47,522 bases of DNA from contig JAJZQZ010000002.1 in NCBI GenBank assembly GCA_021802965.1, positions 1 to 47,522 on the forward strand, read 5' to 3'. Below the pieces are notes generated by a model, which searched no databases, was not told where the DNA came from, and was given only the letters and a program-made list of their open reading frames with translations. The position numbers and the translations under genes were made by a program. Positions within the stretch are counted from its first letter, which is position 1, and the number at the start of each line of letters is the position of its first letter. Positions 23,232 through 42,335 of this stretch are shown piece after piece. The stretch is from Actinomycetes bacterium (GTDB lineage: Bacteria; Actinomycetota; Thermoleophilia; RBG-16-64-13).

Positions 23232-24207
23232 CGAGCACATCCAGATAGGCGAGCCCGCCCTCATCAACAAGGGCATCGAGAAAGCCATCACGGCGGCTGC
23301 CAAGGCCAACCCGCGCATCCTGGCCATCCTCGAGGACATGGGCTTTCCCGGCATCGAGTGGTGGACCACCACCATCCCCGAGCGCATGATCGAGTGCGGC
23401 ATCGCCGAGCAGAACGGCGCGGTGGTGGCCGGGGCCCTGGCCTCCGAGGGCTTCATCCCCATCATCAACAACTTCCTGTTCGCGAACGTGGGGCGGGCCT
23501 TCAACCAGGTGCGCCAGAGCATCCTGGTCGACCGCTTCAACGTGAAGTTCATCGGGCGCGAAGGCGCCTGGGGCGAGGTCGGGGTCTCGCACAATACCAT
23601 CGAGGGGCTGGCCAGCAGCCGTACGCTGCCCAACCTGGTCATCCTGAACCCCGCCGACGTAGTCGAGGCGGAGAAGGCCGCCGAGGCCATGCTGCAGTAC
23701 ATCGGGCCGGTGCTGCTGCGCCAGGAGTCGTCGCCCACCCCGTTGCGCATCTTCCGGGACGACTACCCCTTCGACATCGGCAAGGCCTACACGGTCAAGG
23801 AAGGCGCCGACGCCACCATCATCGCCACGGGGTACATGCTCACTGAGGCGATCCGGGCGGTGGAGCTCTTCGAGGCTCAGGGTCTGGATGTGGCCATCGT
23901 CAACATGTGCACGATCAAGCCGCTGGACGAAGAAGCCATCATCGCGGCCGCCCGGAAGACCGGCGCCATCGTGACGGCCGAGAACGGCACCATCGTCGGC
24001 GGGTTGGGCGACGGCGTCGCCTCCGTCCTGGCCGAGAACTACCCGGTGCCGATGGTGAAGGTGGGCGTCGAGGACGAGTTCAGCCAGTCCGGCCTCATCA
24101 CCCCCGAGCGCGACGAGCTCATGGAGCACTTCGGCCTCGCGGCCGAGGACCTGGTGGTGGCGGTGCAGGATTGCGTCGCCAAGAAGGAGCGATTGCGCAG
24201 GGTCTGA
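23218..24207 (+). CDS. Transketolase, C-terminal (pyrimidine-binding plus C-terminal domain) subunit
   Basis: Contains ECGIAEQNGAVVAGALA and overlaps the N-subunit gene by 14 nt. Confidence 0.9.
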   Translation: MATYNEHIQIGEPALINKGIEKAITAAAKANPRILAILEDMGFPGIEWWTTTIPERMIECGIAEQNGAVVAGALASEGFIPIINNFLFANVGRAFNQVRQSILVDRFNVKFIGREGAWGEVGVSHNTIEGLASSRTLPNLVILNPADVVEAEKAAEAMLQYIGPVLLRQESSPTPLRIFRDDYPFDIGKAYTVKEGADATIIATGYMLTEAIRAVELFEAQGLDVAIVNMCTIKPLDEEAIIAAARKTGAIVTAENGTIVGGLGDGVASVLAENYPVPMVKVGVEDEFSQSGLITPERDELMEHFGLAAEDLVVAVQDCVAKKERLRRV

Positions 24208-24278: not shown

Positions 24279-24917
24279 ATGTTGGTCGCCACCTGGATGA
24301 CGGCGGACCCGGTGACGGTGACTCCGCACGCGCGGCTCAAAGAGGCCGAGGACCTCATGACGAAGCATGAATTCCGGCATCTGCCGGTCGTCGACCAGGG
24401 GAAGCTGGTCGGGATCCTCACCATGAACGACGTGCGCAAGGCCAGCCCTTCGCCGGCCACCACTCTCTCCAGGGGAGAGGTCAACTACCTGCTCGACCAG
24501 ATCGTCGTCAGCGACGTCATGACACGTGACCCGATCACGGTCGGCGCGGACACCCCCGTGGAGGACGCCGCGCTCCTCGCCTACCGGCACAAGATCGGGG
24601 CGCTCCCGGTCGTGCAAGAAGGCCGGCTGGTCGGCATCATCACTCAGAGCGATCTGTTCGACATCATGATGAGCATCTTCCAGGCGGGAGAGGGCAACCG
24701 GCGCATAAGCATCGAGGGTATGCCCCGCGAGTTGGGTTCTTTCCGCAAGGTGGTCGACATCCTCGACGAGTATCGGACGCCCTTCAGCAGCATCCTGGTC
24801 TTTCCGCAGCGCGACTCCGGCCTCTACACCTACTTCGTCCGTGTCCCCGACCGCCAGCTGCCCGAGATCATCGAGGCGCTGAAGGTGGCGGGGATGCCGG
24901 CGACACACGTGTCGTAA
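24279..24917 (+). CDS. CBS-pair protein with a C-terminal ACT-like domain (AcuB-like)
   Basis: Two CBS repeats (MTADPVTVTP...HLPVVDQGKLVGILT and MTRDPITVGA...ALPVVQEGRLVGIIT) followed by a tail of about 70 aa. RBS GAGGAGGG. Confidence 0.7.
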   Translation: MLVATWMTADPVTVTPHARLKEAEDLMTKHEFRHLPVVDQGKLVGILTMNDVRKASPSPATTLSRGEVNYLLDQIVVSDVMTRDPITVGADTPVEDAALLAYRHKIGALPVVQEGRLVGIITQSDLFDIMMSIFQAGEGNRRISIEGMPRELGSFRKVVDILDEYRTPFSSILVFPQRDSGLYTYFVRVPDRQLPEIIEALKVAGMPATHVS

Positions 24918-26376
24918 CCCGGCCTCTTGCGTGGGCGGGCAGGTACGAGCGCGCGCTGCCCGCCCGCCCGCACCCGACGGCCACACCGATCTGATACGCG
25001 ACGTGTTCCGCCATGAAGAAGCCCAGGAAGACGGGGTAGCTCAGCCGCGGACGGCGGATCCAGTAATCGATGGCCGACACGTAGACCAGGGCGACGGCTG
25101 CGAAGAGCCACACCCCGTGGACGAGTAGGCCGATGCCGGCCAGAACCACCAGGTAGTACCTGACCAGGTGGAAGAGCACGAAGTGCAGCATCGACAGGTG
25201 CCCGCGGGCGACGGCGAACCACACCCGGCGTGTAGGCACGTGCACTCCCGCGCGTCTTAGGCGCATGCTGCGCCGCATCCCCTCCCACAGAGGCGGGCCC
25301 AGGGTGGCGAGCAGCAGCCACGGCTGGAGCAGGATCAGGGCCGCCGACAGCGCGATGACGCTGGCCAGCGGAGCGAAGGCCATCGGGAAGCGCTTCCGCT
25401 TATCCGGATGCAGGCTGTGCAGTGGAGCCTCCGACGTGCCGTACTCCGCCCGCCGGCGGAGCATCGCGCTCAGACGAGCGCGATGCTTGTGGCGCACGGT
25501 CCCGGCCGCCGCGTATATCAGGTACCCACCGGCCGCGCGCAATCTCCAGCACAGGTCGACGTCTTCGCCCACGCGCAGTTCCTCACGCAGCCCTCCGAGG
25601 GCGAGATACGCGGTGCGGCGCACGAGCAGGTTGCATGTGGGCACGTAGAACGTATCTGTCCCGGCGGCGGCCAGCAGGACGTGCCCGCCCATGTCGAGGG
25701 GCGATGCGACCTGCTCGTAGCGGTCGAGGCGCGACCGGTCGTAGTATCCGGCGACCCGCCCGCCGACCGCGACGGCGGCCTGCCAGGCGAAGTAGGGCAC
25801 GAGGTCGCGCAGCCAACCTTGCTCGGCCACGCAGTCGCTGTCGATGAAGGCGAGGATCTCGCCCCCGGCCTCCCGCGCCGCCCGGTTGCGGGAGTAGGAC
25901 TGGCCCTGGTTGCCCTCGTTGGCGAGGAAGCGGGCTCCATAGCGGGCGGCGACGCTCTCCGTGACGTCGGGCCGCTCGGAACCGTCGTCCACCACGATGA
26001 CCTCGAGGAGGTCCGGAGGATAGTCGAGCAAGGCGAGCGCCCCGAGGCAGTCGGCCAGATCGTCCGGGCGGTCCTTCGTGGGGATGACGACCGACACGCG
26101 CGGCGCCCAGGCCGGATCGGCCTGGGCGCCGACGACCTCCAGGATGCCCCGGCTGCGAAAGCGTTCGCAGAGGCGCAGCACGCGTTCCTCGTCGGTACCG
26201 ACGGCGGTCGCCAATCGGGTCACGGTCGCGCCTTGACGGGCGGCCTCGAGCATCCGGACGGCGCCCGCGTTGACGCTCATGACGCTGAGGGGGAGGGAGC
26301 AGACCACCCGCTGTTTTCCCTCGGCAGTGGTATCGAAGGCCACGCCGGCCCGCAGCCTGTAGGACAGAGGGATCAC
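24868..26376 (-). CDS. mftF: Mycofactocin-system-type GT2 glycosyltransferase with a C-terminal membrane region
   Basis: GTG 26376 overlaps the fixA stop (GTGA). The GT2 core is VSVVIPTKDRPDDL...VIVVDDGS...FIDSDC, followed by 4-5 predicted TM helices. It is the last gene of the mftABC-containing operon. The 277 N-terminal codons of track ORF 24868-27207 are a spurious overlap with fixA. Confidence 0.72.
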   Translation of the reverse strand: MIPLSYRLRAGVAFDTTAEGKQRVVCSLPLSVMSVNAGAVRMLEAARQGATVTRLATAVGTDEERVLRLCERFRSRGILEVVGAQADPAWAPRVSVVIPTKDRPDDLADCLGALALLDYPPDLLEVIVVDDGSERPDVTESVAARYGARFLANEGNQGQSYSRNRAAREAGGEILAFIDSDCVAEQGWLRDLVPYFAWQAAVAVGGRVAGYYDRSRLDRYEQVASPLDMGGHVLLAAAGTDTFYVPTCNLLVRRTAYLALGGLREELRVGEDVDLCWRLRAAGGYLIYAAAGTVRHKHRARLSAMLRRRAEYGTSEAPLHSLHPDKRKRFPMAFAPLASVIALSAALILLQPWLLLATLGPPLWEGMRRSMRLRRAGVHVPTRRVWFAVARGHLSMLHFVLFHLVRYYLVVLAGIGLLVHGVWLFAAVALVYVSAIDYWIRRPRLSYPVFLGFFMAEHVAYQIGVAVGCGRAGSARSYLPAHARGRVTTRVSPASPPPSAPR

Positions 26377-27293
26377 GGTCGGAGGTGGGACTCCACGGTG
26401 CTCGGGCCGCGGCGCAGATGATCGAGCCAGCCCTCGTCGCGCAAGAGCTGAAAGAGCTCCTCCGCGGCCTCCTCGCCGCCGGCTCGGACGAGGCGTTCCT
26501 CGCGGCGGGTCACGGCGCCCCGAACCAGCTTGAGGATCCGGTCGAAGGCGGGCAGGGACGAGTCGGGCGCGGTCAGGGGGTGCAGCTTCGGCCGGGGAGC
26601 GCGCGGGAGCGTCGTGTGGAGGGCGCTGTCGGCCTGGCGGATCCGCGCGAGGGGCACGCCAAGGTCGGCCAGGCTCCACACCGTGATGTCGGCGGTCGCC
26701 GCCCGCAGGCGGGCGGCGACAGGGATGTCTCGGGTGTCGGCCTCCGCCGGCGACACGGTGACTACCGCGGGAAGCGGGGCCGAGACCCGCTCGCGCCAGC
26801 CCCGAACCAGCGAGCGCTCGATCAGCAGTCTTCCACCCTCTCCCCAGCCGATATCGCCCGCCTGGGTGACACAGCACGTCCCCAGCGCTTCGGCCACGAG
26901 CACCCCGATCTGGCCTCCAGCTCCGAGGGGGCCGGGTGTGCCCAAGAGAGCCAGGTCGCACTCGAGAGCGGCGCCGGCAGCGGCCAGGATGACCGCCGCG
27001 CCTTGGGTGCGGGCCTCGGCGGCCTCTTCGTCCCAGATGCGTACCGCCCGGTCGGCGCCTTTGGCCAGGCCTTCGCGCAGCCACTCGTCGGCGCTCTGGG
27101 GCCCCAGGTGCACGAGGATGATCTCGATCTCGGGGCGGCCGATCCTCAGGCTCAGGGCGAGGTCGAGAGCACGGGCGTCGGCCGGTTTCACCCTGCAAAC
27201 AGACCACTCGGCGCGCACGCGTCTACTCGCGAGGTCCCGCTCGGGCGGTACCCGGAGGTCGAGGCCCAGCTCCTGGCACACCAGTATCTTCAC
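26373..27293 (-). CDS. fixA: Electron-transfer flavoprotein beta subunit (FixA/EtfB family), divergent, with a C-terminal extension
   Basis: Contains MKILVC, GADRAVRIWDE, DLALLG, GQIGVLVAEALG and LPAVVTV. At 306 aa it is longer than the usual length of roughly 250-260 aa. Confidence 0.82.
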   Translation of the reverse strand: MKILVCQELGLDLRVPPERDLASRRVRAEWSVCRVKPADARALDLALSLRIGRPEIEIILVHLGPQSADEWLREGLAKGADRAVRIWDEEAAEARTQGAAVILAAAGAALECDLALLGTPGPLGAGGQIGVLVAEALGTCCVTQAGDIGWGEGGRLLIERSLVRGWRERVSAPLPAVVTVSPAEADTRDIPVAARLRAATADITVWSLADLGVPLARIRQADSALHTTLPRAPRPKLHPLTAPDSSLPAFDRILKLVRGAVTRREERLVRAGGEEAAEELFQLLRDEGWLDHLRRGPSTVESHLRP

Positions 27294-27308: not shown

Positions 27309-27584
27309 CTACGTGAGTCGGAAGCGCACACCGTAGCCTCCATGCGGGTAGTGCCAATCGAGCGCGCCTTGATCGCAGAGCAGCAGGCACGTGCCGCACT
27401 CGAGGCAGGTCTCGTACGCGAACTCGACGCGGCCGCGCTCCTCGCTCCACGTGTAGCAGCGGGCGGGGCACACGAAGGTGCACGCGCGGTGGGTGCACGC
27501 CTGGCAACGCTCGTGGTCGAGGCGGATGTGCGGCTCCGGGTGGATCCGGTAGCTGACCAGGTCGAACAGTTCGTCGACTACCAC
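27309..27584 (-). CDS. fixX: FixX-type ferredoxin-like protein
   Basis: 91 aa with CQACTHRACTFVCPARCY and CLECGTCLLLC. It overlaps the fixC end by 7 nt. Confidence 0.85.
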   Translation of the reverse strand: MVVDELFDLVSYRIHPEPHIRLDHERCQACTHRACTFVCPARCYTWSEERGRVEFAYETCLECGTCLLLCDQGALDWHYPHGGYGVRFRLT

Positions 27585-28885
27585 AGGAACGCCCTCCCTC
27601 CCTCGATGAGGTCGCCGATGACGCGCCGCAGCGGCAGGACATCCCGCAGCGCCTCCCGTCCCAGCTTGCCGATCTTCTGCTTCGGCTGTCCGTCCGACCG
27701 ATATATCTTCTCCATCAGCGTTCCCACCACCCTTGGGTAAGCCTCGAAGAGACGGTCGTGGTGCATGAAGTCGACGGCCCGGCGGAAAGTCGTCATGTCG
27801 CGGAGCACGAAGCTCTGCTTGAGGCGTTCCTGGTAGGCGCCGAGCCGGGCGGCGGAGAGATCGGCGGCGGTCAGGGCCTCATCGGTCACCTCGGCGGCGA
27901 TCATGCCGGATGTCATGGCCAGGTTCATGCCTTCCTGATTGAGCCCGTTCGTGTAGCAAAGACCGGCCGCGTCGCCCGCGAGCAGCAGCCCGGCGGTGGA
28001 GAGTCTGGGCACCATGCCGATGCCGCCCTCGGGGAGCAGATGCGCGGAGTACTCCACGAGCCGGCTCCCGCGCAGCAAGGGAGCCACGGCCGGTGACGCC
28101 ACGAAGCGATCGAGGAGGTCGTAGGGAGCCAGTCCACGCTGTTTGAGCGAATCCAGGTGCATGACCAGGCCGACCGAGAGGGTCTCTGTCTGGGTGTAGA
28201 CATAGCCCCCGCCGCGGATGCCGTCCGTGCAGCCGAGGACCTCATGGGTAGCCCCCTCTCGGCCCGTGAGCCCGAAACGGTCGTCGATCTCGGCTTCGCT
28301 TAAGCGATAGAGGGCGCGGATCCCCAGGGCCAGCTGGCTGGGCTTGAACCCGGCGTGCAGCCCCGCTTCTTGCGCGAGCAGAGAAAGGGTGCCGTCACAC
28401 GCGATGATTATCGGAGCCTCGAGATCGTCGCCCGGCGAGCCCAGGTTCACGCCTCGCACAGCCCCGTCGCGGACCAGCAGTCCGGCCACCCGGCACCCGC
28501 AGAGCAAGGTGACCCCTTGCTTCTCGGCCTGCTGCGCGTACCAGCGGTCGAACAGAGGGCGGTAGAGGGTGAAGCCGGTCAGAGCGCGTTCCGCTGAAGC
28601 GTCGGCATGGAAGGTCACCGAGGTCGACGAGGCCTCGCCCACCACCGTCAGCACCCGCTTGGTCACGGCCCGTTCCCAGGGAGCCTGCTCCCAGAAGTCG
28701 GGCAGCAGCCGCTCGGGAGTGGGACAGTACGCCATCATGCCGCCGAACATGTTCTTGCTGCCCGGGCTCTCCCCACGCTCGAGGAGCGCCACGCGTCTGC
28801 CCTTCTGGGCCAGAGTGAGGGCGGCGGTGGTCCCGGCGGGACCCGCGCCGACGACGATGGCGTCGAAGTCGCCGCGGTCGTTCAC
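27578..28885 (-). CDS. fixC: FAD-dependent ETF:quinone oxidoreductase (FixC family)
   Basis: GTG 28885 overlaps the fixB stop (GTGA). Contains the dinucleotide fold FDAIVVGAGPAGTTAALTLAQKGRRVALLERG. Confidence 0.85.
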   Translation of the reverse strand: MNDRGDFDAIVVGAGPAGTTAALTLAQKGRRVALLERGESPGSKNMFGGMMAYCPTPERLLPDFWEQAPWERAVTKRVLTVVGEASSTSVTFHADASAERALTGFTLYRPLFDRWYAQQAEKQGVTLLCGCRVAGLLVRDGAVRGVNLGSPGDDLEAPIIIACDGTLSLLAQEAGLHAGFKPSQLALGIRALYRLSEAEIDDRFGLTGREGATHEVLGCTDGIRGGGYVYTQTETLSVGLVMHLDSLKQRGLAPYDLLDRFVASPAVAPLLRGSRLVEYSAHLLPEGGIGMVPRLSTAGLLLAGDAAGLCYTNGLNQEGMNLAMTSGMIAAEVTDEALTAADLSAARLGAYQERLKQSFVLRDMTTFRRAVDFMHHDRLFEAYPRVVGTLMEKIYRSDGQPKQKIGKLGREALRDVLPLRRVIGDLIEGGRAFLW

Positions 28886-29877
28886 GAGCCTGCCCCTTCC
28901 GTGCCGGGGCCTCCGCCGGCCGCGGATGACCCCACGGCCTCCGGGGTGGGGGCTGCATCGCGCCACGCCTGGATCTTCCCGAGCAGGGCGGGGAGCACCT
29001 CCTCGAGCTCCGCGACGAAACCCACGTCCGAGAACTGGAACATCGGGGCTCGGGGGTCGTGGTTGACCGAGACCACCCGCTCAGCGCCGCGGATGCCCGC
29101 GACGTGGTGAGGCGAACCCGAGACCCCCAGGGCGATGTACAGGTCGGGCGCGACCGTCTTGCCCGTCTGTCCCACGAGTCGCTCCTTGGGAAGCCTGCCG
29201 TCGTCGACGACCGGGCGGGTAGCCCCGACCGAGCCTTCGAGCAGGTCGGCGAGTGCGCGGGCTTGGTCCAGCAGGTCCTCTCGGGCCGCGCCCGAGCCCA
29301 CCGCGACGATCCGCCGGGCGTGGACCAGGTCCACGGAGCGGGCGTCGGGCGCGAGAAGCTCGAGTCGCACGACCCCATCCAAGCCCGGGACCTCGAGATC
29401 CGCGCGCTCGACGGGCAGCTCGGCCGGGGGCGGCCCGCCTTCGGGATCGGCCGCGTCGACGATGAGGGTGACGACCTGTACCCGCCCGGGGGCGTACGTG
29501 GTCTCCTGCTCCAGCCACCCGCCCAGCGCCGGCCGGGTGAACGTCGGCACGCCTTCGGGGAAGGTGACCTGGGTGCAGCCGAGGAGGGCGCCTGTGCCCA
29601 GCCGATGGGCGAGCATCGGCGCCAGTTGCCGGCCGACATCCGAGTCGGGCAGCACCACGAGACCGACGGCGCTCTTGCTCACCCGGGCGGCCAGGGCTTC
29701 GGCCACGGCCTCGAGACGGTGAGGCGCCACGTCCGTCCAGGTCCACGCCGCGGCGGCGCCGCCGGCGGCTTCGGCGAGGCGCAAAGCCTGGGCGACCAAG
29801 GGGTCTCGCTGCGCGCCGTCACCGACGGAATCGGCCTCGGACGGCTCCAGCACGACCAGGATCGCGGGACCGTTCAT
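28882..29877 (-). CDS. fixB: Electron-transfer flavoprotein alpha subunit (FixB/EtfA family)
   Basis: ATG 29877 overlaps the upstream stop (ATGA). The FAD-binding C-terminal domain reads GATRPVVDDGRLPKERLVGQTGKTVAPDLYIALGVSGSPHHVAGI. Confidence 0.85.
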   Translation of the reverse strand: MNGPAILVVLEPSEADSVGDGAQRDPLVAQALRLAEAAGGAAAAWTWTDVAPHRLEAVAEALAARVSKSAVGLVVLPDSDVGRQLAPMLAHRLGTGALLGCTQVTFPEGVPTFTRPALGGWLEQETTYAPGRVQVVTLIVDAADPEGGPPPAELPVERADLEVPGLDGVVRLELLAPDARSVDLVHARRIVAVGSGAAREDLLDQARALADLLEGSVGATRPVVDDGRLPKERLVGQTGKTVAPDLYIALGVSGSPHHVAGIRGAERVVSVNHDPRAPMFQFSDVGFVAELEEVLPALLGKIQAWRDAAPTPEAVGSSAAGGGPGTEGAGS

Positions 29878-31823
29878 ACCCTCTTGCCGGCCATGTAGCC
29901 CTCGTGGATGGCCATGTCGACCCGGCGCGGGGCGACACAGTCGCCGATGCGGTACAGCTCGGGCACCTTGCCCTTGAGGGCGAAGTAGAGGCCGTCGTCG
30001 GCGTCGTTGCCCATGGCCGTCACGACGCTGTCGTAGCCGCCGAGGACGTCCCACACGTTGGAGTACACGTTGAACCCGTGGATCTCCGTGCCCTTGATCT
30101 CCATGACCGCGAAGTCGGGGGTGAAGGTGACTCCCTTCTGCAGCAGCCGCTGGCGCGTGAGGTAGAGGTCCTGGGACGGGCCCAGCTCGGCGCCCACGAA
30201 GAGGCTGGACGTGATGACATGCACCTTCTTGCCCAGCTCGGCCAGGAGCTCCGCTGTGGCCGTCGCCTGATGGTGGCCGTCGTAGTCGATGAGCACCACG
30301 TTCTCGCCGAGGTCCGCTTGGCCCATCAGGACCTGCCAGACGTTAAAGACCTTGGGTCCGTCGGCTCCGCCGACGGGGCAGGCCTTGGGACGAGAGCCCG
30401 TGGCCACGATGACGGCGTCCGGGGAACGGTCGAACAGTAGCGCGGGGGTCATCTCCACGCCCAGCTCCACCGGCACGCCCAGATGCTTGAGCTGGTTGCG
30501 CTCGTTGCGGACGATCACACCGAACTCCTCGCGGCCGGCGCCCTTCACGGCCAGGAGGATCTGCCCTCCGAGCTCCTCTCCCCGCTCGACCAGGGTGACG
30601 TCGTGGCCGCGCAGCGCGGCCGTCTTGGCCGCCCACATGCCGCCGGGGCCGCCGCCCACCACGAGCACACGCTTCTTGCGCAAGGTGGGCCTCAGGTTGG
30701 CTTCGCCCTCCGTGTCCTCGCATCCGACGGCCGGGTTCTGCACGCATCCGATGGTCTTGTTGAGCCCGACGCGCCCGTAGCAGTTCTGGTTGCACGCGAT
30801 GCAGTAGCGGATCTCCTCCGTCCGGCCCTGGCGCGCTTTCGAGGCGAAGTCCGGGTCGGCGATCTGCCCCCGGACGACGCCGATCATGTCGGCTTGACCC
30901 TCGGCGAGCACCCGTTCCGCCAGGGTCGGGTCGTTGATGCGGCCGGTGGCGAAGACCGGCAGGGTGGCCACCTCCTTGATGCCCGCGGCCAGAGGCACCG
31001 CGTAGCCCAGGGGCAGGTGGAGCGTCCCGCCCACCAAGTACAGGTTGTAGAAGGTGGAGAGGGTCAGATTGAAGAAGTCGAGGCCGCCCTTCTCCTGCAG
31101 GTACTGAGCGATCTGTTTGGCGTCGTCGAGGGTCAGGCCTCCGGGGATCAGCTCGTCGGCACAGAGGCGCACGCCGAGAGTGAAGTCGGTCCCCAGGGTC
31201 TTGCGCACGGCCGCGATCAGCTCCACGGCGAACCGGAGGCGGTTCTCGAAGGCTCCGCCGTATTCGTCGCTTCTGAAGTTGGTCAGCGGCGACATGAACT
31301 GTCGGGCCAGCGAGCTGTGTCCGAACTGCAGCTCGACCCCGTCGAAGCCGCCTTCGCGCACGTGGACGGCCGACCGGCAGAAGTACTCGATGACCTCCAC
31401 GATGTCCTCGGGCTCCATCGCTTTGGGGGTCTCCCGGTAGAGGACGTCGGGGATGGGAGAGGGCGCCCAGACCGGCAGGCGGGAGAGGCTGCCGCTGCAC
31501 TGCTGCCCGTTGTGGTTGAGCTGAGCGAAGATGCGGGTCTCGTAGGCGTGGACCGCGCGGGTGATCTTCTGGTAACCGGGAACGACCTGGGGTCGGAAGG
31601 CTTCGATCAGGTGCTCGTAGGCCCGGTCCGTGGGGTGGACCGACTGCTCCTCCGTGATGATGAGGCCGGCGCCGCCCCGGGCGCGCGCCGCGAGGTAGTG
31701 CATAAGGCGGTCGGTCGGCAGGCCGTCGGCGGCAAGGTTGGTGAGGTGGGCCGAGAACGAGATGCGGTTGGCGACCTCGACCCGGCCTATGCGCAGCGGG
31801 CTGAACAGGTTGGGGAACTGCAT
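29874..31823 (-). CDS. FMN/[4Fe-4S] OYE-family flavoprotein with a C-terminal FAD/ADP-binding domain (2,4-dienoyl-CoA reductase / trimethylamine-dehydrogenase family)
   Basis: Shows an OYE TIM-barrel N-terminal half, the Cys cluster CIACNQNCYGRVGLNKTIGC and an intact first Rossmann motif VLVVGGGPGGMWAAKTAALRGHDVTLVE. The second dinucleotide motif is degenerate (VVLIDYDGHHQATA). Confidence 0.85.
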   Translation of the reverse strand: MQFPNLFSPLRIGRVEVANRISFSAHLTNLAADGLPTDRLMHYLAARARGGAGLIITEEQSVHPTDRAYEHLIEAFRPQVVPGYQKITRAVHAYETRIFAQLNHNGQQCSGSLSRLPVWAPSPIPDVLYRETPKAMEPEDIVEVIEYFCRSAVHVREGGFDGVELQFGHSSLARQFMSPLTNFRSDEYGGAFENRLRFAVELIAAVRKTLGTDFTLGVRLCADELIPGGLTLDDAKQIAQYLQEKGGLDFFNLTLSTFYNLYLVGGTLHLPLGYAVPLAAGIKEVATLPVFATGRINDPTLAERVLAEGQADMIGVVRGQIADPDFASKARQGRTEEIRYCIACNQNCYGRVGLNKTIGCVQNPAVGCEDTEGEANLRPTLRKKRVLVVGGGPGGMWAAKTAALRGHDVTLVERGEELGGQILLAVKGAGREEFGVIVRNERNQLKHLGVPVELGVEMTPALLFDRSPDAVIVATGSRPKACPVGGADGPKVFNVWQVLMGQADLGENVVLIDYDGHHQATATAELLAELGKKVHVITSSLFVGAELGPSQDLYLTRQRLLQKGVTFTPDFAVMEIKGTEIHGFNVYSNVWDVLGGYDSVVTAMGNDADDGLYFALKGKVPELYRIGDCVAPRRVDMAIHEGYMAGKRV

Positions 31824-31826: not shown

Positions 31827-32849
31827 CTAGGCCACCTCCACTGCGGATCGCAGGCATTCCGGGTCCGGCAGACCCAGGGTTTCGGTCAGGAAATACGCGA
31901 CCGCCGGGCACCCCCCGTGGCATACCGAGAAGCGGTCGCAGGCCCGGCAGGCGTCGACCTCGAGCTCCCGGAACCGCTCGAACACGGGGGAAGAGTCGAA
32001 GATACTCGCCAGGCTTTCGTCGACGACACTACCCGCGAGGAAGGCCGGGTCGCACAGGAAGGCGCAGGGATAGATCGACCCGTCGGGGGCGATCGCGCAG
32101 GTCATCTTGGCCGCTCCGCACATGTTGAGCCCCAGATGGCGGCGGCTGTCGGGAGCCAGGGCGAAGAAGGAGTCGCCGGTGAGGATCTCGGGCCGCTCGC
32201 CCAGAAACCGGGACAGCTCGGTGAGCTGCTGCCGGGTGAGGCGGTACTCGTCCCACGTGGCGCAACCCCCTCCCGACGGGCGGAAGCGGGAGAGGCGGGT
32301 CTTCGCGCCGTAGTGCCGGCACAGCCGGTCGAACTCGGCGATCTGGCCCACGTTGAGTCGGGTCACGACCATATTAAGGCTGTAGTGAGGGAACCCTCGC
32401 GAAGCGAGCAGCTCGATGCCCGCGAGGATCCGGTCGAAGGTGCCCCCGCCACGGATGACGTCGTTGGTGGCCCGATCGGACCCGTCCAGGCTCACCTGCA
32501 GGTAGAGCGATTCCATTGCGAGGAGCTCGTCGAGTAAAGCATGGTCCAGAAGGGTGCCGTTGGTGCTGACGCAGGTGGTGATGCCCCGGGCCTGCGCATA
32601 GCGCAACAGGTCGAGGAAGTCGTCGCGCAAGAACGGTTCCCCCCCGCCGAAGTTGACCTGGAACACCTGCATCCGCGCCAGCTCGTCGATGAGGGCCCGG
32701 CACTGGTCGGTATTCAGCTCGCCCTGACCGCGGGCGCGGAGGTCCGCCGAGAGGCAATGGCTGCAGCGGAGGTTGCAGGCCTCCGTTATCTCCCAGGTGA
32801 CGTTGACGGGAGCGTTGAGGCGGGTGTTACTCAGCTGGCGGTGCGGCAA
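31827..32849 (-). CDS. mftC: Radical SAM/SPASM peptide maturase, mycofactocin MftC-type
   Basis: Contains TWEITEACNLRCSHC (Cx3Cx2C) and C-terminal SPASM cysteines (CGAAKMTC...YPCAF...CRACDRFSVCHGGC). The apparent TTG start overlaps mftB by 23 nt. Confidence 0.85.
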   Translation of the reverse strand: MPHRQLSNTRLNAPVNVTWEITEACNLRCSHCLSADLRARGQGELNTDQCRALIDELARMQVFQVNFGGGEPFLRDDFLDLLRYAQARGITTCVSTNGTLLDHALLDELLAMESLYLQVSLDGSDRATNDVIRGGGTFDRILAGIELLASRGFPHYSLNMVVTRLNVGQIAEFDRLCRHYGAKTRLSRFRPSGGGCATWDEYRLTRQQLTELSRFLGERPEILTGDSFFALAPDSRRHLGLNMCGAAKMTCAIAPDGSIYPCAFLCDPAFLAGSVVDESLASIFDSSPVFERFRELEVDACRACDRFSVCHGGCPAVAYFLTETLGLPDPECLRSAVEVA

Positions 32850-33078
32850 CGATCAACCCTTTGTGCATCAGGTTCTGCAGGAGGCGCGACACGGCCGCTT
32901 CGCGCGGTCCTTCGAGCGGCTCGATTCCGAGCACACGCCGCTCTCCCGTGAACGGGGGAGGGGTGAGGCTGTCGCCCGAGCGCACGAAGGTCAGGTTGGT
33001 CGAGCGGGTGTCGTAGAAGAGCAGCCCGAACGACTCCTGGCGCACGCGCACCCAGTCGGGCACAACATACTCGGTCAT
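32827..33078 (-). CDS. mftB: Mycofactocin biosynthesis chaperone (PqqD/RRE-like)
   Basis: 83 aa with WVRVRQESFGLLFYDTRSTNLTFV, typical of MftB/PqqD-family peptide-binding proteins. It sits between the precursor and the radical SAM gene. Confidence 0.75.
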   Translation of the reverse strand: MTEYVVPDWVRVRQESFGLLFYDTRSTNLTFVRSGDSLTPPPFTGERRVLGIEPLEGPREAAVSRLLQNLMHKGLIVAAPPAE

Positions 33079-33124: not shown

Positions 33125-33250
33125 TCAATAGACGCCGCAGATACCGTCGACGGCCAGATCTTCGACCTCGATCTCTTCGAGGATGGCGGGCTCGTCGCAG
33201 TCGGGGCATCCGCCGTTCAGGACGTCGCCGTCGCTGGGGCAAGGATCCAT
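33125..33250 (-). CDS. mftA: Mycofactocin-type RiPP precursor peptide (41 aa), absent from the ORF track
   Basis: Hand translation of the - strand gives MDPCPSDGDVLNGGCPDCDEPAILEEIEVEDLAVDGICGVY followed by a stop. The RBS GGAGG lies 8 nt upstream. The C-terminus matches the conserved MftA ending (..VEEVSIDGMCGVY in mycobacteria). Confidence 0.85.
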   Translation of the reverse strand: MDPCPSDGDVLNGGCPDCDEPAILEEIEVEDLAVDGICGVY

Positions 33251-33455: not shown

Positions 33456-34565
33456 TCAGTCCCACTCGCAGACCCAGCGCCCGTTGAGCTGCCGCTTCTC
33501 CATCTTCTCCATGATGTCGTTCAGCTCTTCGAGCTTGAATTTGCCGGCCACCAGCTTGTCGAGCTTCATCTCGCCTGTCATGGCCAGGTCGCACAGCTTG
33601 GGGATGTCGTCGTGGGTCGAAATGGAGCCATACAGGCCGCCGATCATCGACTTCTGCTGCAGCGGCATGAAGGTCAGGGGCATCTGGGCCACCTGGTCCT
33701 GAGGCATGACGCCGACCACTATCAGGCGACCGGCCATGGCGAGGGTCCACCAGGCCTGTACGAGGGCGCCGGCGTCGCCGATGGCCTCGAAGGCCACGTC
33801 CACCCCGCCGCCGGTGAGCTCCTGGATGATCGGTACCGGGTCTTCCTTCGAGTTGCAGATGAAGTGGGTGGCGCCCATGGCCATCGCGAGCTCGCGACGG
33901 TCCTCTTCGAGGTCCACGGCGATGACCGGGTTGGCATGGCGCGCCCGGGCGGCCCGCAGCACGTTGAGGCCGACACCGCCCATGCCCCATATCGCGACCT
34001 TGTCGCCGGGCTGGATGTTGGCCAGGTTGGTGACCGAGCCCCAGCCGGTCGGGATGCAGCAGCTCATGAGGGCGGCCCACTCGAGGGGCATGTCCTTGCG
34101 GATCGGCACGACGCCGGTCTCGGGCACGACGTTGTAGTCAGAGAAGCCGGACACGAAATTGCCGTGGAGCACCGGCTTACCGGCAGCGTCGGTCATACGG
34201 GACGTGCCGTCGAGCATGGTGCCGGCGAGGAAGTGCGGGAAGTTGCCCGTGCACACGTTGCCGAGCCCGCTGCGGCACATCGGGCAGTCACCGCAGGGGA
34301 TCATCCACGTGCTGGCGACGTGGTCTCCCACCTGCACGCGGGTAACGCCCGGGCCCACGGCCTCGACCACCCCTGCGCATTCGTGACCGGCCACCATGGG
34401 CGTCGCGATCTGGATGCGGCCCATGGCCACGCTTAGGTCGCTGTGGCAGTACCCGGTGTAAGCGTACTTGACGAGCACCTCGCCGGCCTGCGGCGGGGCC
34501 AGCTCCAGCTCCTCGATGTTGTAGCCCTTCCCTATGTCTCTTAGAACGGCAGCTCTGATCTTCAC
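33456..34565 (-). CDS. Zn-dependent alcohol dehydrogenase (class-III / nicotinoprotein-like MDR)
   Basis: Contains GYCHSDLS, GHECAG, the structural Zn site CGDCPMCRSGLGNVC and the Rossmann segment IWGMGGVG. GTG start after the RBS AAAGGAGAG. It lies directly upstream of the mft operon. Confidence 0.9.
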   Translation of the reverse strand: MKIRAAVLRDIGKGYNIEELELAPPQAGEVLVKYAYTGYCHSDLSVAMGRIQIATPMVAGHECAGVVEAVGPGVTRVQVGDHVASTWMIPCGDCPMCRSGLGNVCTGNFPHFLAGTMLDGTSRMTDAAGKPVLHGNFVSGFSDYNVVPETGVVPIRKDMPLEWAALMSCCIPTGWGSVTNLANIQPGDKVAIWGMGGVGLNVLRAARARHANPVIAVDLEEDRRELAMAMGATHFICNSKEDPVPIIQELTGGGVDVAFEAIGDAGALVQAWWTLAMAGRLIVVGVMPQDQVAQMPLTFMPLQQKSMIGGLYGSISTHDDIPKLCDLAMTGEMKLDKLVAGKFKLEELNDIMEKMEKRQLNGRWVCEWD

Positions 34566-34614: not shown

Positions 34615-35685
34615 CTACGTCTGCGCGGCCGCCTCCGTGGCGTCCGCTTCCTCCAGTGGGCCGCTGTCCGCGCCTGGAGAGCGCCCGAGCCCCCGCACCC
34701 GGTACCCGACGGGCATCAGCTGCAGTCCGAACCGTTCCTCGATGGTCCCCCACAGCCCTCTCGGCAGCAGGAGCGCGAAGAGGATGGCGACGACGCCGAG
34801 GCCGATCAGGTACCAGACTCCCAGATCGGCGAACCAGTCTTGGATCAGAAAGAGCAGGATGGCCCCCAGGACCGGTCCTTCGAACGTCCCCAGACCGCCC
34901 ACCAGCACCATGAAGATGGCGAAGGCGGTCCACTGGACGCTGAAGATCGAGTTGGGCTGGATGAAGAGGGTGTTGGCGAGGGTCATGGCGCCGGCGGCGC
35001 CGAAGCCGACCGCCGCGAAGATGTAGAGCACGCGCTTGCCCGCCATCACGCGCACACCCACCGACGCGGCCGCCTGTTCGTCGTCGCGGATGGCCTGTAG
35101 TGACGAGCCCATTCGGCTGCGCAGCAACACGAAGAGCACGATCAGAAGCACGGCCGTGGCGCCCAGGGCGAACCAGTAGGTGTAATCCTGCCTGTGTTCG
35201 GGCCCGTACTGGTTGAGCTCGATCAGCGATATCCCGGTGCCGGCGCCCAGCCCCTTGTCCAGTGACACGATCACCGTGAACGCGGCCGCGACCACCCAGG
35301 TGGCGATGGAGAACTGGCCGCCCGTGAGCCGCAGGAGCAAGAAGGAGAAGACCACCGAGATGGCGCCGGCGAGGATGATGGCCAGGAACATGGCGGGGTA
35401 GGGGGGGACGCCGTGGTGCGCGAACCACACGGTGCCGTATGCGCCGATGCCGATGTAGGCCTGCTGTCCCACAGAGACCAGCCCGCCGTAGCCCGCGAGA
35501 GCGTTCCACATGGACGCGATCATGATGAGGATGAAGAGGGCGGTGAGCTTCTGGACGACGTTCGCGCTCATGAACATCGGGAAGAAGGCGAGCACCACTA
35601 CCAGCAGTCCTGCGCCTCCGGTGAAAGCCCGAGAGACCTTCGTCCAGCGCTGGACCGAGAGGCCGGTGGTCCGCAGGGGGTTCAT
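34615..35685 (-). CDS. ABC permease, LivM-like (second HAAT system)
   Basis: ATG 35685 overlaps the LivH-like stop (ATGA). Contains MWNALAGYGGLVSVGQQAYIGIGAY. Confidence 0.85.
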   Translation of the reverse strand: MNPLRTTGLSVQRWTKVSRAFTGGAGLLVVVLAFFPMFMSANVVQKLTALFILIMIASMWNALAGYGGLVSVGQQAYIGIGAYGTVWFAHHGVPPYPAMFLAIILAGAISVVFSFLLLRLTGGQFSIATWVVAAAFTVIVSLDKGLGAGTGISLIELNQYGPEHRQDYTYWFALGATAVLLIVLFVLLRSRMGSSLQAIRDDEQAAASVGVRVMAGKRVLYIFAAVGFGAAGAMTLANTLFIQPNSIFSVQWTAFAIFMVLVGGLGTFEGPVLGAILLFLIQDWFADLGVWYLIGLGVVAILFALLLPRGLWGTIEERFGLQLMPVGYRVRGLGRSPGADSGPLEEADATEAAAQT

Positions 35686-36560
35686 GCTGTGCCCTCCCGC
35701 GCCGCCAAGATCCCGCCGCTCCGTACCGCGATGACCGCGAGAAACACCAGGTGGCCGGCCAGGTTGGCGTACTGCGGGTTGATCTGGGCGCCCAGGGTCT
35801 GAGCGACTCCAAGGATGAGCCCGCCGACCAAGGTGCCCCAGAGGGACCCGAAGCCTCCGATGACCACCGCTTCGAAGGCGAATATCAGCTGGGTCGGGCC
35901 CGCCGAGGGTTCCACCACGGCCCGGATCGCCAGAAAGACCCCGGCGAGGGCCGCCGTGGCGACGGCGATGCCCGCCGCCCGTGCGTAGACGCCCCGGGAG
36001 TCGATGCCCACGAGCTCGGCCGTGTCCGAGTCCTGGGCGGTGGCGCGCATCGCCCTGCCGAGCGTGGTGCGGCGCAGGAAGAGGGAGAGCCCGCCGAGGA
36101 CCGCGACGGCCACGGCCAAGATCAGGATCCCCAGGGCCGAGATCGAGAACTGCTGGCTCACCTTCCAGCTGGTCGTCGTCACGGCCCCCGCCTGCCCTCC
36201 AAGCGAGCGCACGTCGGGCGAGAAGACCCCGAGGAGGACGTTGTCGATCACGATCGCGAGGCCGAACGTAGTAAGAAGCGGGATAAGGATACCCGCCCGG
36301 AGGCTGCGTTCGAGGAGCCCGCGTTGGAGGGCCCACCCGACGCCGAACATGACGATGAGGCTTGGGATGAGTACGAGGAAGGGGGAGAGGGAGGTCTTGT
36401 CGACGATCCACCAGGTGATGAAGGCGCCGAGTACGGCGAGGGAGCCGTGCGCCAGGTTGATGATGCGCATCACGCCGAAGATGAGGGAAAGGCCGCACGC
36501 GAGCAGCGCGTAGAAACCGCCCAGGATGATGCCTTGGAAGACCGCGTTCACATAGGTCAT
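35682..36560 (-). CDS. ABC permease, LivH-like (second HAAT system)
   Basis: Begins MTYVNAVFQGIILGGFYALLACGLSLIFG and has an ATGA overlap with the upstream ATPase gene. Confidence 0.85.
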   Translation of the reverse strand: MTYVNAVFQGIILGGFYALLACGLSLIFGVMRIINLAHGSLAVLGAFITWWIVDKTSLSPFLVLIPSLIVMFGVGWALQRGLLERSLRAGILIPLLTTFGLAIVIDNVLLGVFSPDVRSLGGQAGAVTTTSWKVSQQFSISALGILILAVAVAVLGGLSLFLRRTTLGRAMRATAQDSDTAELVGIDSRGVYARAAGIAVATAALAGVFLAIRAVVEPSAGPTQLIFAFEAVVIGGFGSLWGTLVGGLILGVAQTLGAQINPQYANLAGHLVFLAVIAVRSGGILAAREGTA

Positions 36561-37288
36561 GCCGGAGCTCCCTTCGGCTGCACCCTGCCGAGCCCGAAGT
36601 AGGCTTCGGTGATCTCGCGGCTGGTGAGACGGTCGGCCGGTCCCTCGAGCACCATCCGCCCCTCGAGCATGCAGATGATCCGTTGCGCCACCTTGCGCGC
36701 CCGGGCGAGGTCCTGCTCGACGAGGACGATGGTGGCTCCGCCGTCGATCAAGGTGTGCAGCGAGCGGTAGACGCCTTCGACGGCGATGGGCGACAGCCCC
36801 AGGGAGACCTCGTCCAAGAGGAGCAAGCGCGGGTTGGTCATGAGCGCGCGCCCGATGGCGCAGGCCTGCTGCTCGCCCCCGGAGAGGGTGGCCGCCCGCT
36901 TGAATCGCAGCGGCTTCAAGATCGGGAAGGCTTCCAAGACCGTATCGACCTTCCATGCGCCTCCACGGCGTCCGTTGGCCCCCGCGACGATCAGGTTCTC
37001 TTCGACGGTCATGTCCGGGAACAGACGGCGGCCTTCGGGGACCAGGGCGAGCCCGGCCCGCACTCGCCGGTGCGCCGGCATGGCGGTGACGTCCGCACCT
37101 TCGAAGACCACGCGGCCGCTGGCCGGCCGATGGGCCCCGGCGATGGCCCGCATGAGGGTCGTCTTTCCGGCGCCGTTCGCGCCGACGAGGGCGAGGATCT
37201 CCCCTTCGCCGACCTCGAAGCTGACATCCCGGACGGCCTTGAGCAGCCCGTGCCGGACGTCGAGGTTCTCGACCGAGAGCAGACTCAT
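36557..37288 (-). CDS. ABC ATP-binding protein, LivF-like
   Basis: Contains GANGAGKTT, LSGGEQQ and LLLLDE, with an ATGA overlap with the LivG-like gene. Confidence 0.9.
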   Translation of the reverse strand: MSLLSVENLDVRHGLLKAVRDVSFEVGEGEILALVGANGAGKTTLMRAIAGAHRPASGRVVFEGADVTAMPAHRRVRAGLALVPEGRRLFPDMTVEENLIVAGANGRRGGAWKVDTVLEAFPILKPLRFKRAATLSGGEQQACAIGRALMTNPRLLLLDEVSLGLSPIAVEGVYRSLHTLIDGGATIVLVEQDLARARKVAQRIICMLEGRMVLEGPADRLTSREITEAYFGLGRVQPKGAPA

Positions 37289-38025
37289 ACCACCCCGCTC
37301 CCCAGGTAGGCGTCTATCACGGCTTCGTCGCGCAGCACCGAGTCCGGGTCGCCATCGACGATGACCCGGCCGGCGTTCATGCACACCAGGCGGTCCACCA
37401 CCTGCAACAGGACGTGGACTATGTGCTCGATCCAGACGATGGCCACGCCCTGCGCGCGAAGCTGTTTGATGGTCAGCACGAGTTCGGTCGCTTCCTCGTC
37501 GGTGAGGCCGCCGCCGATCTCGTCCAGCAGCACGACCACCGGGTCGGTGGCCAGAGCCCGGGCCAGCTCAAGGCGCTTGCGGTGAAGGAGGCCGAGGCTT
37601 TCCGCCCGTCGGTTGGCGAGCGGGGTCAGGCCGCACAGGTCGAGCACCTCGAGACAGCGCTCGTAGCAGCGCGAGCCGCGCAGGCCTCCGCCGCTGGATG
37701 CACTCACGAAGACGTTCTCGAACACCGTCATATCCCCGAAAGGCCGCGGGATCCGGAAGGCGCGGCCTATGCCCAGGCGCGAACGCTGCGTGGCGGAGGT
37801 CCCGTTGATCTGCTGGTCATGGAACCACACGGAACCCCCGTTGGGCTCGAGGGATCCGGCCAGCACGTTGAGGAGGGTCGTCTTGCCGGCTCCGTTGGGA
37901 CCGACTATGCCGACCGCCTCATCGGCCCCCACCGAGAAGTCGACCCCGTCGAGGACGGCGAGCGCCCCGAAGTGCTTATGGATGTCCCGTGCCGAAAGTA
38001 CGGGTGTAGCTGACTCCTTGGACAT
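37285..38025 (-). CDS. ABC ATP-binding protein, LivG-like
   Basis: Contains GPNGAGKTT and a DIHKHFGALAV opening. Confidence 0.9.
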   Translation of the reverse strand: MSKESATPVLSARDIHKHFGALAVLDGVDFSVGADEAVGIVGPNGAGKTTLLNVLAGSLEPNGGSVWFHDQQINGTSATQRSRLGIGRAFRIPRPFGDMTVFENVFVSASSGGGLRGSRCYERCLEVLDLCGLTPLANRRAESLGLLHRKRLELARALATDPVVVLLDEIGGGLTDEEATELVLTIKQLRAQGVAIVWIEHIVHVLLQVVDRLVCMNAGRVIVDGDPDSVLRDEAVIDAYLGSGVV

Positions 38026-38060
38026 GCATCCCCCGTGATCGCCTGCACTTTATCGTGCGG

Positions 38061-38115
38061 CCGGCGGTCGGACCGCCGGGATACGTGCAAGGGCGGCTCG
38101 GAAGCCGCCCTTGCA
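38061..38115 (-). terminator. Two tandem GC hairpins between the binding-protein gene and the ATPase gene (intra-operon attenuator or mRNA stabiliser)
   Basis: The first is CCGGCGGTC-G-GACCGCCGG (38061-38079). The second is TGCAAGGGCGGCT-CGGA-AGCCGCCCTTGCA (38086-38115, 13-bp perfect stem). Confidence 0.5.
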
Positions 38116-38154
38116 TCATGACGCTACCTGCCCCGCTCAGTGGCGCACGACCGT

Positions 38155-42332: not shown

Positions 42333-42335
42333 GTG

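Follow-up and report, generated by a model that had tools for sequence, protein, structure and literature searches.

How mycofactocin could be made and recycled in organisms whose gene clusters hold neither MftD nor MftG is the question raised by the locus described here. Biosynthesis and recycling of this cofactor are understood only for the mycobacterial MftA-G set, and a large group of clusters, including those of Streptomyces, Saccharopolyspora, haloarchaea, Geobacter, Syntrophorhabdales and Gaiellales, is devoid of the essential MftD and of MftG. In such clusters an OYE protein (sometimes accompanied by OYE1) and the ETF/FixCX genes are the only conserved redox genes that are still unexplained. 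In M. smegmatis, deletion of mftD abolishes mycofactocin, which makes MftD essential, and deletion of mftE is leaky (PMC7491314). The mftD phenotype implies that a substitute is needed where the gene is missing, and that one exists follows from S. erythraea, which produces both mycofactocinone and mycofactocinol (MMFT-2, MMFT-2H2 and MMFT-3; PMC9679996). The pairing of a missing mftD with the presence of TIGR03997 was published in 2024 for Saccharopolyspora clusters (PMC11162802) and is not new. Literature searches that paired mycofactocin with ETF, with Geobacter or with anaerobes turned up no pertinent paper.

The window, i.e., the whole 47.5-kb stretch of DNA that was analysed, contains a cluster of this type in the order mftA-mftB-mftC-OYE2-etfA-fixC-fixX-etfB-mftF, preceded by an alcohol dehydrogenase gene:

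33456..34565, minus strand: Zn-dependent alcohol dehydrogenase, 5' of mftA (TIGR03989 NDMA-dependent ADH, 322 bits, under the cutoff of 440)
33125..33250, minus strand: mftA, mycofactocin precursor of 41 aa with the end VDGICGVY (NF040489 variant-type MftA, 41 bits, cutoff 30; TIGR03969, 27 bits, cutoff 25)
32827..33078, minus strand: mftB, peptide chaperone of 83 aa (TIGR03967, 40 bits, cutoff 33)
31827..32849, minus strand: mftC, radical SAM/SPASM maturase (TIGR03962, 356 bits, cutoff 265)
29874..31823, minus strand: OYE2, three-domain flavoprotein of 649 aa (TIGR03997 member, with Pfam domains)
28882..29877, minus strand: etfA/fixB-like ETF alpha subunit, 331 aa (PF00766, E = 3e-28; PF01012)
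27578..28966 (longest ORF), minus strand: fixC-like ETF:quinone oxidoreductase flavoprotein (FixC and PRK10015 models, 313-323 bits; ETFQO_UQ-bd domain)
27309..27584, minus strand: fixX-like ferredoxin of 91 aa (4Fe-4S motifs; Fer4 families; weak Fer4_ETF_QO match)
26373..27293, minus strand: etfB/fixA-like ETF beta subunit, 306 aa (PF01012, 82 bits)
24868..26376, minus strand: mftF, glycosyltransferase (TIGR03965, 347 bits, cutoff 280)

The genes are tightly packed. OYE2 starts 3 nt past the mftC stop, which is the mftD slot of canonical clusters, and the sequence-only reading was thus right in seeing the position of MftD occupied by this gene. It had also noted that the OYE2 stop runs into the ATG of the ETF alpha gene, and the overlap can be read directly in the junction GTATGAACGG, where the TGA of OYE2 (29876..29874) overlaps the etfA ATG (29877..29875); the two genes are translationally coupled. 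Further downstream, the real start of fixC probably lies near 28880, at the etfA stop, and mftF begins with a GTG that overlaps the stop of etfB. The arrangement is conserved: the cassette is found again in about 70 of 80 related genome loci, and mftB-mftC-OYE2-etfA-fixC-fixX-etfB-mftF is kept in 67-76 of 81 loci, whose hosts include Actinomycetota, Desulfobacterota and Acidobacteriota, with mftC next to OYE2 and mftF downstream in 73-76, etfA, fixC, fixX and etfB downstream of OYE2 in 70-77, and fixX at the same position in 76. Altogether, OYE2 is linked to mftC and ETF genes in more than 150 loci. The cluster of the window belongs to the OYE2-only subtype, which has neither OYE1 nor mftE and possesses a variant-type MftA (…DGICGVY). 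Alcohol dehydrogenases flank the cassette.

In content, the four accessory genes correspond to the FixABCX/EtfABCX set (T. maritima 7KOE; E. coli fixABCX and ydiQRST) but differ in their order, etfA-fixC-fixX-etfB, and in being fused to a cofactor biosynthesis cluster. The fixC product scores 236 bits against T. maritima FixC (7KOE_C). The best solved relatives of the ETF alpha subunit are the bifurcating-type ETFs 5OL2 and 7KOE (136 bits vs 105 for the Paracoccus ETF), while the ETF beta subunit, which also has relatives in the PDB, is too divergent to be assigned to a type. Mycofactocin-specific models exist for both subunits, and here both stay under the cutoff (NF038209 mft_etfA, 146 bits, cutoff 240; TIGR04503 mft_etfB, 81 bits, cutoff 200).

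The OYE2 reading frame has the strongest coding signal of the region (GC3 of 0.92). Its product is a full-length member of TIGR03997 ("mycofactocin system FadH/OYE family oxidoreductase 2"; 948.4 bits, cutoff 793.15, residues 5-648 on profile positions 1-644), the sister family of TIGR03996 (OYE 1). It does not represent a new family, since NCBIfam already names both the family and its ETF partners as mycofactocin components, and nothing sets it apart from other members, which share its genomic association with mftC, mftF and ETF genes. Hundreds of public relatives named TIGR03997 are 75-87% identical to it, and the homologues available are at least 74% identical. The protein consists of an FMN TIM barrel (Oxidored_FMN, residues 6-336, E = 8e-60), a [4Fe-4S] linker and two alpha/beta domains (Pyr_redox_2 on residues 385-640). 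The motifs listed by the sequence-only reading (FMN barrel, cysteine cluster, GGGPGG and the missing second GxGxxG) were all found where it had placed them, on the minus strand. The Cx2Cx3Cx11C cluster, CIACNQNCYGRVGLNKTIGC, spans residues 341-360; three of its four cysteines are invariant across 80 relatives, and at the second position 56 of them have Cys and the other 24 Asp. The intact first dinucleotide motif, GGGPGG, occupies residues 390-395 and is accompanied by a FadH-like GREEF motif; the two hint at FAD in the first dinucleotide domain. At the second Rossmann position (residues 509-522, VVLIDYDGHHQATA) no GxGxxG is present, and the aligned site reads LIDYDGHH in OYE2 vs IIGCGGIG in FadH. 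The glycine motif is indeed missing, but the word degenerate, used by the sequence-only reading, misleads, and a vestigial second alpha/beta domain is ruled out: among the 80 relatives the conservation of this domain is 0.79, vs 0.76-0.82 for the other domains, and IDYDGH is nearly invariant.

The absence of MftD was followed over 160 related loci, 80 from genomes and 80 Streptomyces-type loci from metagenomes, each examined over +/-10 kb, in addition to the 47.5-kb window. No MftD, MftE or MftG was found in the window or within +/-10 kb of the 80 genome loci, and tblastn with MftD references gave no match in the window or the related loci. Within the same distance the 80 metagenome loci contained no MftD or MftG, and 18 of them contained MftE. 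The MftC and MftF controls were detected where the search for MftD came up empty. For MftG, a Streptomyces reference was added to that of Tsukamurella (423 aa), with which tblastn had missed an annotated Streptomyces mftG, and the related loci again gave no match. Twelve plasmid records with mftC fall into two groups, with an MftD ortholog on four and an OYE gene on eight separate records. Among nine plasmid clusters inspected in detail, four possess MftD without OYE/ETF and five OYE, EtfA and FixCX without MftD. In every mft cluster sampled, MftD and OYE exclude each other. Both cluster types occur in Streptomyces, their MftC proteins being 73% identical and the IDGMCGVY core common to both.

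Which activity, then, does OYE2 contribute? Most likely it serves as a dehydrogenase linked to ETF, with C-3 of the mycofactocin core as its site of action, and is a candidate substitute for MftD and probably for MftG too; for this best explanation, in which a TIGR03997 flavoprotein without an NAD(P)H site is coupled to ETF, the chances seem about even. OYE2 would remove a hydride at C-3 in the pyrrolidinone core and thereby oxidise AHDP to premycofactocin without O2, the job of MftD. It would probably also re-oxidise mycofactocinol, the job of MftG, which is plausible since both reactions would take place at one carbon and by almost the same chemistry. Electrons would leave via the [4Fe-4S] cluster, possibly with FAD, to EtfAB, FixC/FixX and the menaquinone pool. 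What the comparisons show is the family to which OYE2 belongs, its motifs, the conservation of the cassette and the systematic lack of MftD and MftG nearby; its substrate, which way the electrons flow and ETF as the direct partner are what we infer. A fully bifunctional version, in which this single OYE-type flavoprotein carries out both the O2-independent oxidative deamination of AHDP and the re-oxidation of mycofactocinol and feeds a dedicated EtfAB-FixCX chain to menaquinone, possibly with bifurcation to ferredoxin, appears doubtful. Two paralogues, OYE1 and OYE2, are present in many actinobacterial clusters, so OYE2 might have just one of the two proposed roles.

MftD is reported to use O2 in vitro. 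It is the premycofactocin synthase (TIGR03966, FMN_dh) and occupies the same slot after mftC; both it and OYE2 use FMN and can remove a hydride beside a carbonyl. However, MftD is an alpha-hydroxy-acid-oxidase barrel that stands alone, whereas OYE2, in which the Pfam domain search gave no FMN_dh match, combines an OYE barrel with a [4Fe-4S] cluster and two Rossmann-type domains and is encoded with ETF and FixCX. The two are not homologous, and any equivalence would be one of function. As to the proposal of an O2-independent replacement for MftD, the mftD slot and the absence of MftD speak for it, but its oxygen argument loses force, since the same module is present in Streptomyces and haloarchaea, which are aerobic.

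The proposal had also leaned on a kinship with the amine dehydrogenases TMADH, DMADH and HADH (2TMD/1DJN, 3K30, 6DE6), which have the three-domain architecture and the four-cysteine cluster in common with OYE2 and use ETF as redox partner; TMADH and HADH pass their electrons to it (PMC6502838). The second Rossmann sites are also alike, VVVYDDDHYYLGGVVAELLA in HADH vs VVLIDYDGHHQATATAELLA in OYE2, both without glycines (VVVYDDDHYY in HADH). Nevertheless, this kinship was not borne out. The Cys that forms 6-S-cysteinyl-FMN (PHC motif; VPHCNG in HADH) is replaced by Leu in OYE2 (SAHLTN), HLTN being conserved in its family, and GREEF resembles the GKEEF of FadH beside FAD, not HADH. OYE2 is 27-28% identical to HADH vs 32-34% to NCR and FadH, and its scores are 188-204 bits with amine dehydrogenases vs 277-325 with NCR and FadH, the closest solved structures being NCR (6QKG, 325 bits) and FadH (1PS9, 277 bits). 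In a neighbour-joining (NJ) tree, a rough one with few references and of the kind that the sequence-only reading had called for, OYE2 forms its own clade apart from HADH and 6L6J and nearer to NCR and FadH. Membership in the amine-dehydrogenase clade is ruled out by this separate clade, the lower identity and the Leu in place of Cys. Nor does the loss of an NAD(P)H site mark an amine oxidiser, for NCR, a reductase, is without one as well (PMC6502838). The missing amine-dehydrogenase Cys and the presence of the module in aerobes were both counted against the best explanation.

Because MftG is absent too, the data are equally compatible with a mycofactocin(ol):ETF oxidoreductase, i.e., an MftG analogue that would connect the mycofactocin pool through EtfAB-FixCX to menaquinone, possibly also to ferredoxin by bifurcation, with the AHDP step left to another, unlinked enzyme. 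ETF, FixC and FixX constitute a respiratory-type, high-flux chain, and a four-gene module of this kind looks like more than a single low-flux biosynthetic step would need, a point counted against the MftD role. The ETF alpha subunit is nearest to bifurcating-type ETFs, alcohol dehydrogenases lie on the flanks, and MftG is missing genome-wide in the hosts of OYE-type clusters Geotalea, Geobacter pickeringii, Saccharopolyspora, Halolamina, Haloterrigena and S. yangpuensis. More generally, 77 of 311 genomes with mftC have no mftG, and residual mycofactocinol oxidation suggests that other dehydrogenases are at work (PMC11778925). However, Thermomicrobium possesses MftD but neither MftG nor the OYE module, which argues that absence of MftG alone does not demand the module, and in the clusters L151 and L166 the mftD slot is still occupied by OYE1-OYE2 while ETF and FixCX genes are missing beside it. 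An MftG analogue would, moreover, leave the essential MftD step without a candidate, in clusters that are passed between phyla as whole units, and we regard it as unlikely that OYE2 is confined to this role.

A reversed electron flow is decidedly less probable: OYE2 would be a reductase fed by a FixABCX-type complex, much as NCR is proposed to draw on a low-potential donor. Its target would be a C=C or C=O bond, either of a mycofactocin intermediate or of some unrelated substrate such as an enoyl-type compound from neighbouring alcohol/ketone pathways. Its nearest characterised relatives are NCR (325 bits), FadH (277 bits) and the BaiCD (419 bits) and bilirubin reductase (338 bits) models; that NCR, FadH and BaiCD are C=C reductases was also counted against an MftD role. 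NCR and FadH act on CoA thioesters. NCR is the closest parallel, having, like OYE2, no NADPH site and relying on a protein partner thought to be ferredoxin-like and to dock at the loop matching IDYDGH (PMC6502838), and GREEF matches the GKEEF of FadH beside FAD. However, the Tyr proton donor present in OYE, NCR and FadH (Y166 of FadH, GSEGYLINEF) is Ser in OYE2 (FGHSSLARQF), and this Ser within GHSSLARQF is conserved in the 80 relatives. Moreover, OYE2 is tied to mftC and mftF and to no catabolic gene across phyla with differing neighbours, and the strict exclusion of MftD would go unexplained. OYE2 is highly unlikely to be just another NAD(P)H-dependent 2,4-dienoyl-CoA or enoate reductase that lies beside the mft genes by chance, despite the domain architecture and 34% identity shared with FadH. 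FadH keeps its GxGxxG for NADPH and OYE2 does not, the nearly invariant IDYDGH taking its place; the linkage to mftC and ETF is maintained in more than 150 loci, and OYE2 falls under the cutoffs of all reductase models while exceeding that of TIGR03997.

If the fully bifunctional version is true, one module replaces both MftD and MftG, which would explain how strict anaerobes such as Geobacter and Syntrophorhabdus produce and use mycofactocin. Once shown, the function of OYE2 would complete the pathway for organisms without MftD, establish how the cofactor can be made independently of oxygen and reveal the path of alcohol-derived electrons to the quinone pool in anaerobes. In genome mining, rules that require mftD misclassify such clusters (cf. 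antiSMASH, PMC11162802). The Zn-dependent alcohol dehydrogenase at 33456..34565, next to the cassette, is a candidate mycofactocin-dependent enzyme, and the same family is found at that position in 28 related loci.

The window has a GC content of about 67 %, and its real genes are marked by codon-position GC. Identification with NCBIfam and Pfam places a mycofactocin (mft) cassette on the minus strand, in order of transcription:

33456..34565, minus strand, Zn-ADH (TIGR03989, under cutoff)
33125..33250, minus strand, mftA, terminal VDGICGVY, match to 'variant-type MftA' NF040489
32827..33078, minus strand, mftB (TIGR03967)
31827..32849, minus strand, mftC (TIGR03962, 356 bits)
29874..31823, minus strand, OYE2, the target, 649 aa (TIGR03997, 948 bits)
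28882..29877, minus strand, ETF alpha (PF00766, PF01012)
27578..28966, minus strand, FixC-like flavoprotein (FixC models, 313-323 bits)
27309..27584, minus strand, FixX-like ferredoxin (Fer4 families)
26373..27293, minus strand, ETF beta (PF01012)
24868..26376, minus strand, mftF (TIGR03965), its GTG start overlapping the etfB stop

In scans of practically all remaining ORFs of the 47.5-kb window, no FMN_dh protein (MftD, premycofactocin synthase), creatininase (MftE) or GMC oxidoreductase (MftG) turned up. This variant cluster type is already recognised by NCBIfam.

The OYE2 gene starts 3 nt past the stop of mftC and, as the sequence-only reading had it, its own stop overlaps the ATG of the ETF alpha gene (junction GTATGAACGG), whose 331-aa product carries ETF and ETF_alpha domains. 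Within the target, Pfam assigns residues 6-336 to Oxidored_FMN (E = 8e-60) and residues 385-640 to Pyr_redox_2. The motifs described earlier are likewise present: the Cx2Cx3Cx11C cluster (CIACNQNCYGRVGLNKTIGC), the first dinucleotide motif GGGPGG, and a second Rossmann position that lacks a glycine motif (VVLIDYDGHHQATA). The match to TIGR03997, 'mycofactocin system FadH/OYE family oxidoreductase 2', is full-length and exceeds the cutoff of 793 bits, while the next-best models all stay under their own cutoffs (BaiCD, 419 bits; TIGR03996 OYE_1, 378 bits; bilirubin reductase, 338 bits). Relatives in public databases already carry the TIGR03997 name, and the target gene is a new member of this named family in an uncultured actinobacterial genome. 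The cluster motif occupies residues 341-360 (DNA about 30744-30803); its second ligand is Asp in 24 of 80 close relatives (loci L020, L031, L033 and others), which read CIADNQNC vs CIACNQNC. The Asp-bearing versions from Syntrophorhabdales, Acidobacteriota and Goldbacteria suggest an Asp-ligated [4Fe-4S] cluster or another cluster type.

A genome scan gave 246 loci around relatives, 80 of which were fetched (64-85 % identity). They were drawn from MAGs of Gaiellales and Thermoleophilia, from Geobacter and Desulfuromonadales, and from Syntrophorhabdales, Acidobacteriota and other groups. An unbiased clustering of every ORF in these loci returned a single conserved cassette, mftB, mftC, OYE2, etfA, fixC, fixX, etfB and mftF, on the same strand and at fixed offsets; 67-76 of the 81 loci contain it, and contig ends account for the rest. 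MftD, MftE and MftG references taken from annotated plasmid clusters had no tblastn match in the 80 fetched loci or the window; as controls in the same loci, MftC matched in 73-76 and MftF in 69. In Geobacter/Desulfuromonadales loci (e.g. L055:17114-18883, L040:1876-3132) an Fe-alcohol dehydrogenase gene precedes the cassette, and behind it come a gene for an aldehyde:ferredoxin oxidoreductase-like protein of 589 aa and genes resembling MoaD/ThiF. These flanks, identified by reading the sequences alone, suggest that the cofactor is tied to a route from alcohol through aldehyde to acid.

Twelve records in a plasmid collection contain mftC. Four of these (Thermomicrobium, Streptomyces NBC_00080, M. 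chubuense and Tsukamurella) encode an MftD ortholog whose identity to the reference is 62 % or more, and none of the four clusters has an OYE or ETF module. The other eight have an OYE gene, with 47-48 % identity to the target in six Streptomyces and 39-40 % in Haloterrigena and Halolamina. All five OYE plasmids inspected (three Streptomyces, both haloarchaeal) show the order OYE, etfA, FixC-like flavoprotein, FixX ferredoxin, with an annotated ETF beta gene and mftE, and lack both mftD and mftG. The Streptomyces order is mftA-B-C-OYE1-OYE2-etfA-fixC-fixX-etfB-(SDR)-mftF-mftE, and NCBI already annotates these ETF genes as 'mycofactocin-associated'. Because the two Streptomyces cluster types have 73 % identical MftC and share the IDGMCGVY core, this is a within-genus exchange of [MftD (+MftG)] for [OYE1+OYE2+EtfAB+FixCX]. 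Another 80 loci, from metagenomes and centred on OYE2 of the Streptomyces type, gave no match to MftD or MftG (0/80 each); FixC matched in 57, MftC in 49 and MftE in 18. Two of these 80 (L151:2682-10400 and L166:6967-14819) read mftC-OYE1-OYE2-x (about 0.8 kb)-mftF-mftE with no adjacent ETF/FixCX genes, so the OYE pair can persist without a dedicated electron-transfer module. Tandem paralogues, OYE1 (TIGR03996) then OYE2, are typical of actinobacterial clusters (L084, L089, most of L090-L169); the window-type cassette has OYE2 only, with a second copy in 1 of 81 loci. OYE1 is missing the active-site His (EIDAGQYSLLRQF).

Deletion of mftD abolishes all mycofactocins and leads to accumulation of its substrate AHDP (Peña-Ortiz et al., PMC7491314). 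Nevertheless, 17 Saccharopolyspora clusters in BGCFlow lack mftD and contain a TIGR03997 gene 'with unknown function' (PMC11162802), and MMFT-2, MMFT-2H2 and MMFT-3 were detected in S. erythraea (Ellerhorst et al., PMC9679996). The pairing of absent mftD with TIGR03997 is thus already in print; our literature search found no published function for TIGR03997 or the associated ETF. The redox centre requires MftD, yet MftD-less, OYE-bearing clusters belong to a mycofactocin-making genus. Because the OYE protein(s) of such clusters lie in the mftD slot and no other conserved redox enzyme there lacks an assignment, it is very probable that OYE2 acts on the mycofactocin core. Loss of mftE gives a leaky phenotype, since a different peptidase can take over (PMC7491314). 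The canonical MftD-type cluster of the Thermomicrobium roseum plasmid (L083) has neither mftE nor mftG nearby, so MftE is dispensable in clusters of more than one type, which agrees with that phenotype.

What kind of OYE protein this is can be approached through solved structures. Ranked by sequence, the target is closest to the 2-naphthoyl-CoA reductase NCR (6QKG, 325 bits), then FadH (1PS9, 277 bits), histamine dehydrogenase (HADH, 3K30, 204 bits), 6L6J (194 bits) and TMADH (188 bits). In a rough NJ tree, window-type and Streptomyces OYE2 form their own clade, nearer NCR and FadH and apart from HADH and 6L6J. Where TMADH and HADH link FMN covalently via Cys (PHC) the target has Leu (AHL), and in place of the Tyr proton donor of OYE, FadH and NCR it has Ser, in a conserved GHSSLARQF. 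The FAD-proximal GKEEF of FadH is matched by GREEF, whereas the second Rossmann site, IDYDGH, resembles YDDDHY of HADH; it is nearly invariant in 80 sequences, and the second domain is as conserved (0.79) as the others (0.76-0.82). In TMADH and HADH the bound nucleotide is ADP, and the cluster hands its electrons to ETF; NCR has no NADPH site, and a ferredoxin-like donor is thought to dock at the loop equivalent to IDYDGH (PMC6502838). The loss of GxGxxG thus speaks against NAD(P)H use by the target, and a plain NAD(P)H enzyme is scarcely credible; by itself, however, the loss is no sign of the amine oxidation proposed earlier.

Among the accessory proteins, FixC is nearest its T. maritima counterpart in the EtfABCX complex (236 bits), ETF alpha is nearest bifurcating-type ETFs, only modestly so, and ETF beta is divergent. 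FixX, a small ferredoxin, has 4Fe-4S motifs and matches Fer4_ETF_QO weakly. Together they form a predicted ETF-to-quinone path. MftG is missing from 77 of 311 mftC genomes, and the MftC-positive/MftG-negative entries include Geotalea uraniireducens, Geobacter pickeringii, five Saccharopolyspora, Halolamina, Haloterrigena and S. yangpuensis (PMC11778925). Premycofactocin, the MftD product, has a midpoint potential of -255 mV (PMC7491314).

The sequence-only reading had cast the enzyme as ETF-dependent, either an O2-independent MftD replacement or a mycofactocinol:ETF oxidoreductase. AHDP, with its C3-NH2, and mycofactocinol, with its C3-OH, would both be oxidised by removal of the C-3 hydride beside the lactam carbonyl, so one enzyme could plausibly serve both. 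We see an even chance that OYE2 covers the MftD step and probably recycling too: the mutual exclusion with MftD fits a biosynthetic role, and the attached ETF-FixCX chain with the genome-wide lack of MftG fits recycling. These last two features would equally suit an enzyme of recycling only, which we consider rather unlikely, and a reductase fed by the Fix complex seems less probable still.

Elsewhere in the window, an acetone-carboxylase-like set at 492-5194 (+), comprising a gamma subunit (PF08882) and hydantoinases A and B in that order, is followed by an MtaA/URO-D-like protein, an SDR, a glycerol-dehydrogenase-like Fe-ADH, an LDH/MDH and a ketopantoate-reductase-like gene; this neighbourhood appears given over to small alcohols and ketones. 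Between these catabolic genes and the mft cassette lie genes for E1 alpha, E1 beta and E2 of a 2-oxoacid (acetoin-type) dehydrogenase, together with a split transketolase pair, at 10306-14399 (+) and 22335-24207 (+). Two complete branched-chain-amino-acid-type ABC transporter sets, each with one binding protein, two permeases and two ATPases, flank the mycofactocin cassette (15462-20498, +; 34615-39579, -). At 40528-45350 (-), about 9 kb from the ETF genes, a large MalT/LuxR regulator accompanies a DUF2284 metal-binding protein and an acyl-CoA dehydrogenase whose best model is the acryloyl-CoA reductase AcrC (under cutoff); this dehydrogenase could be a second ETF client.
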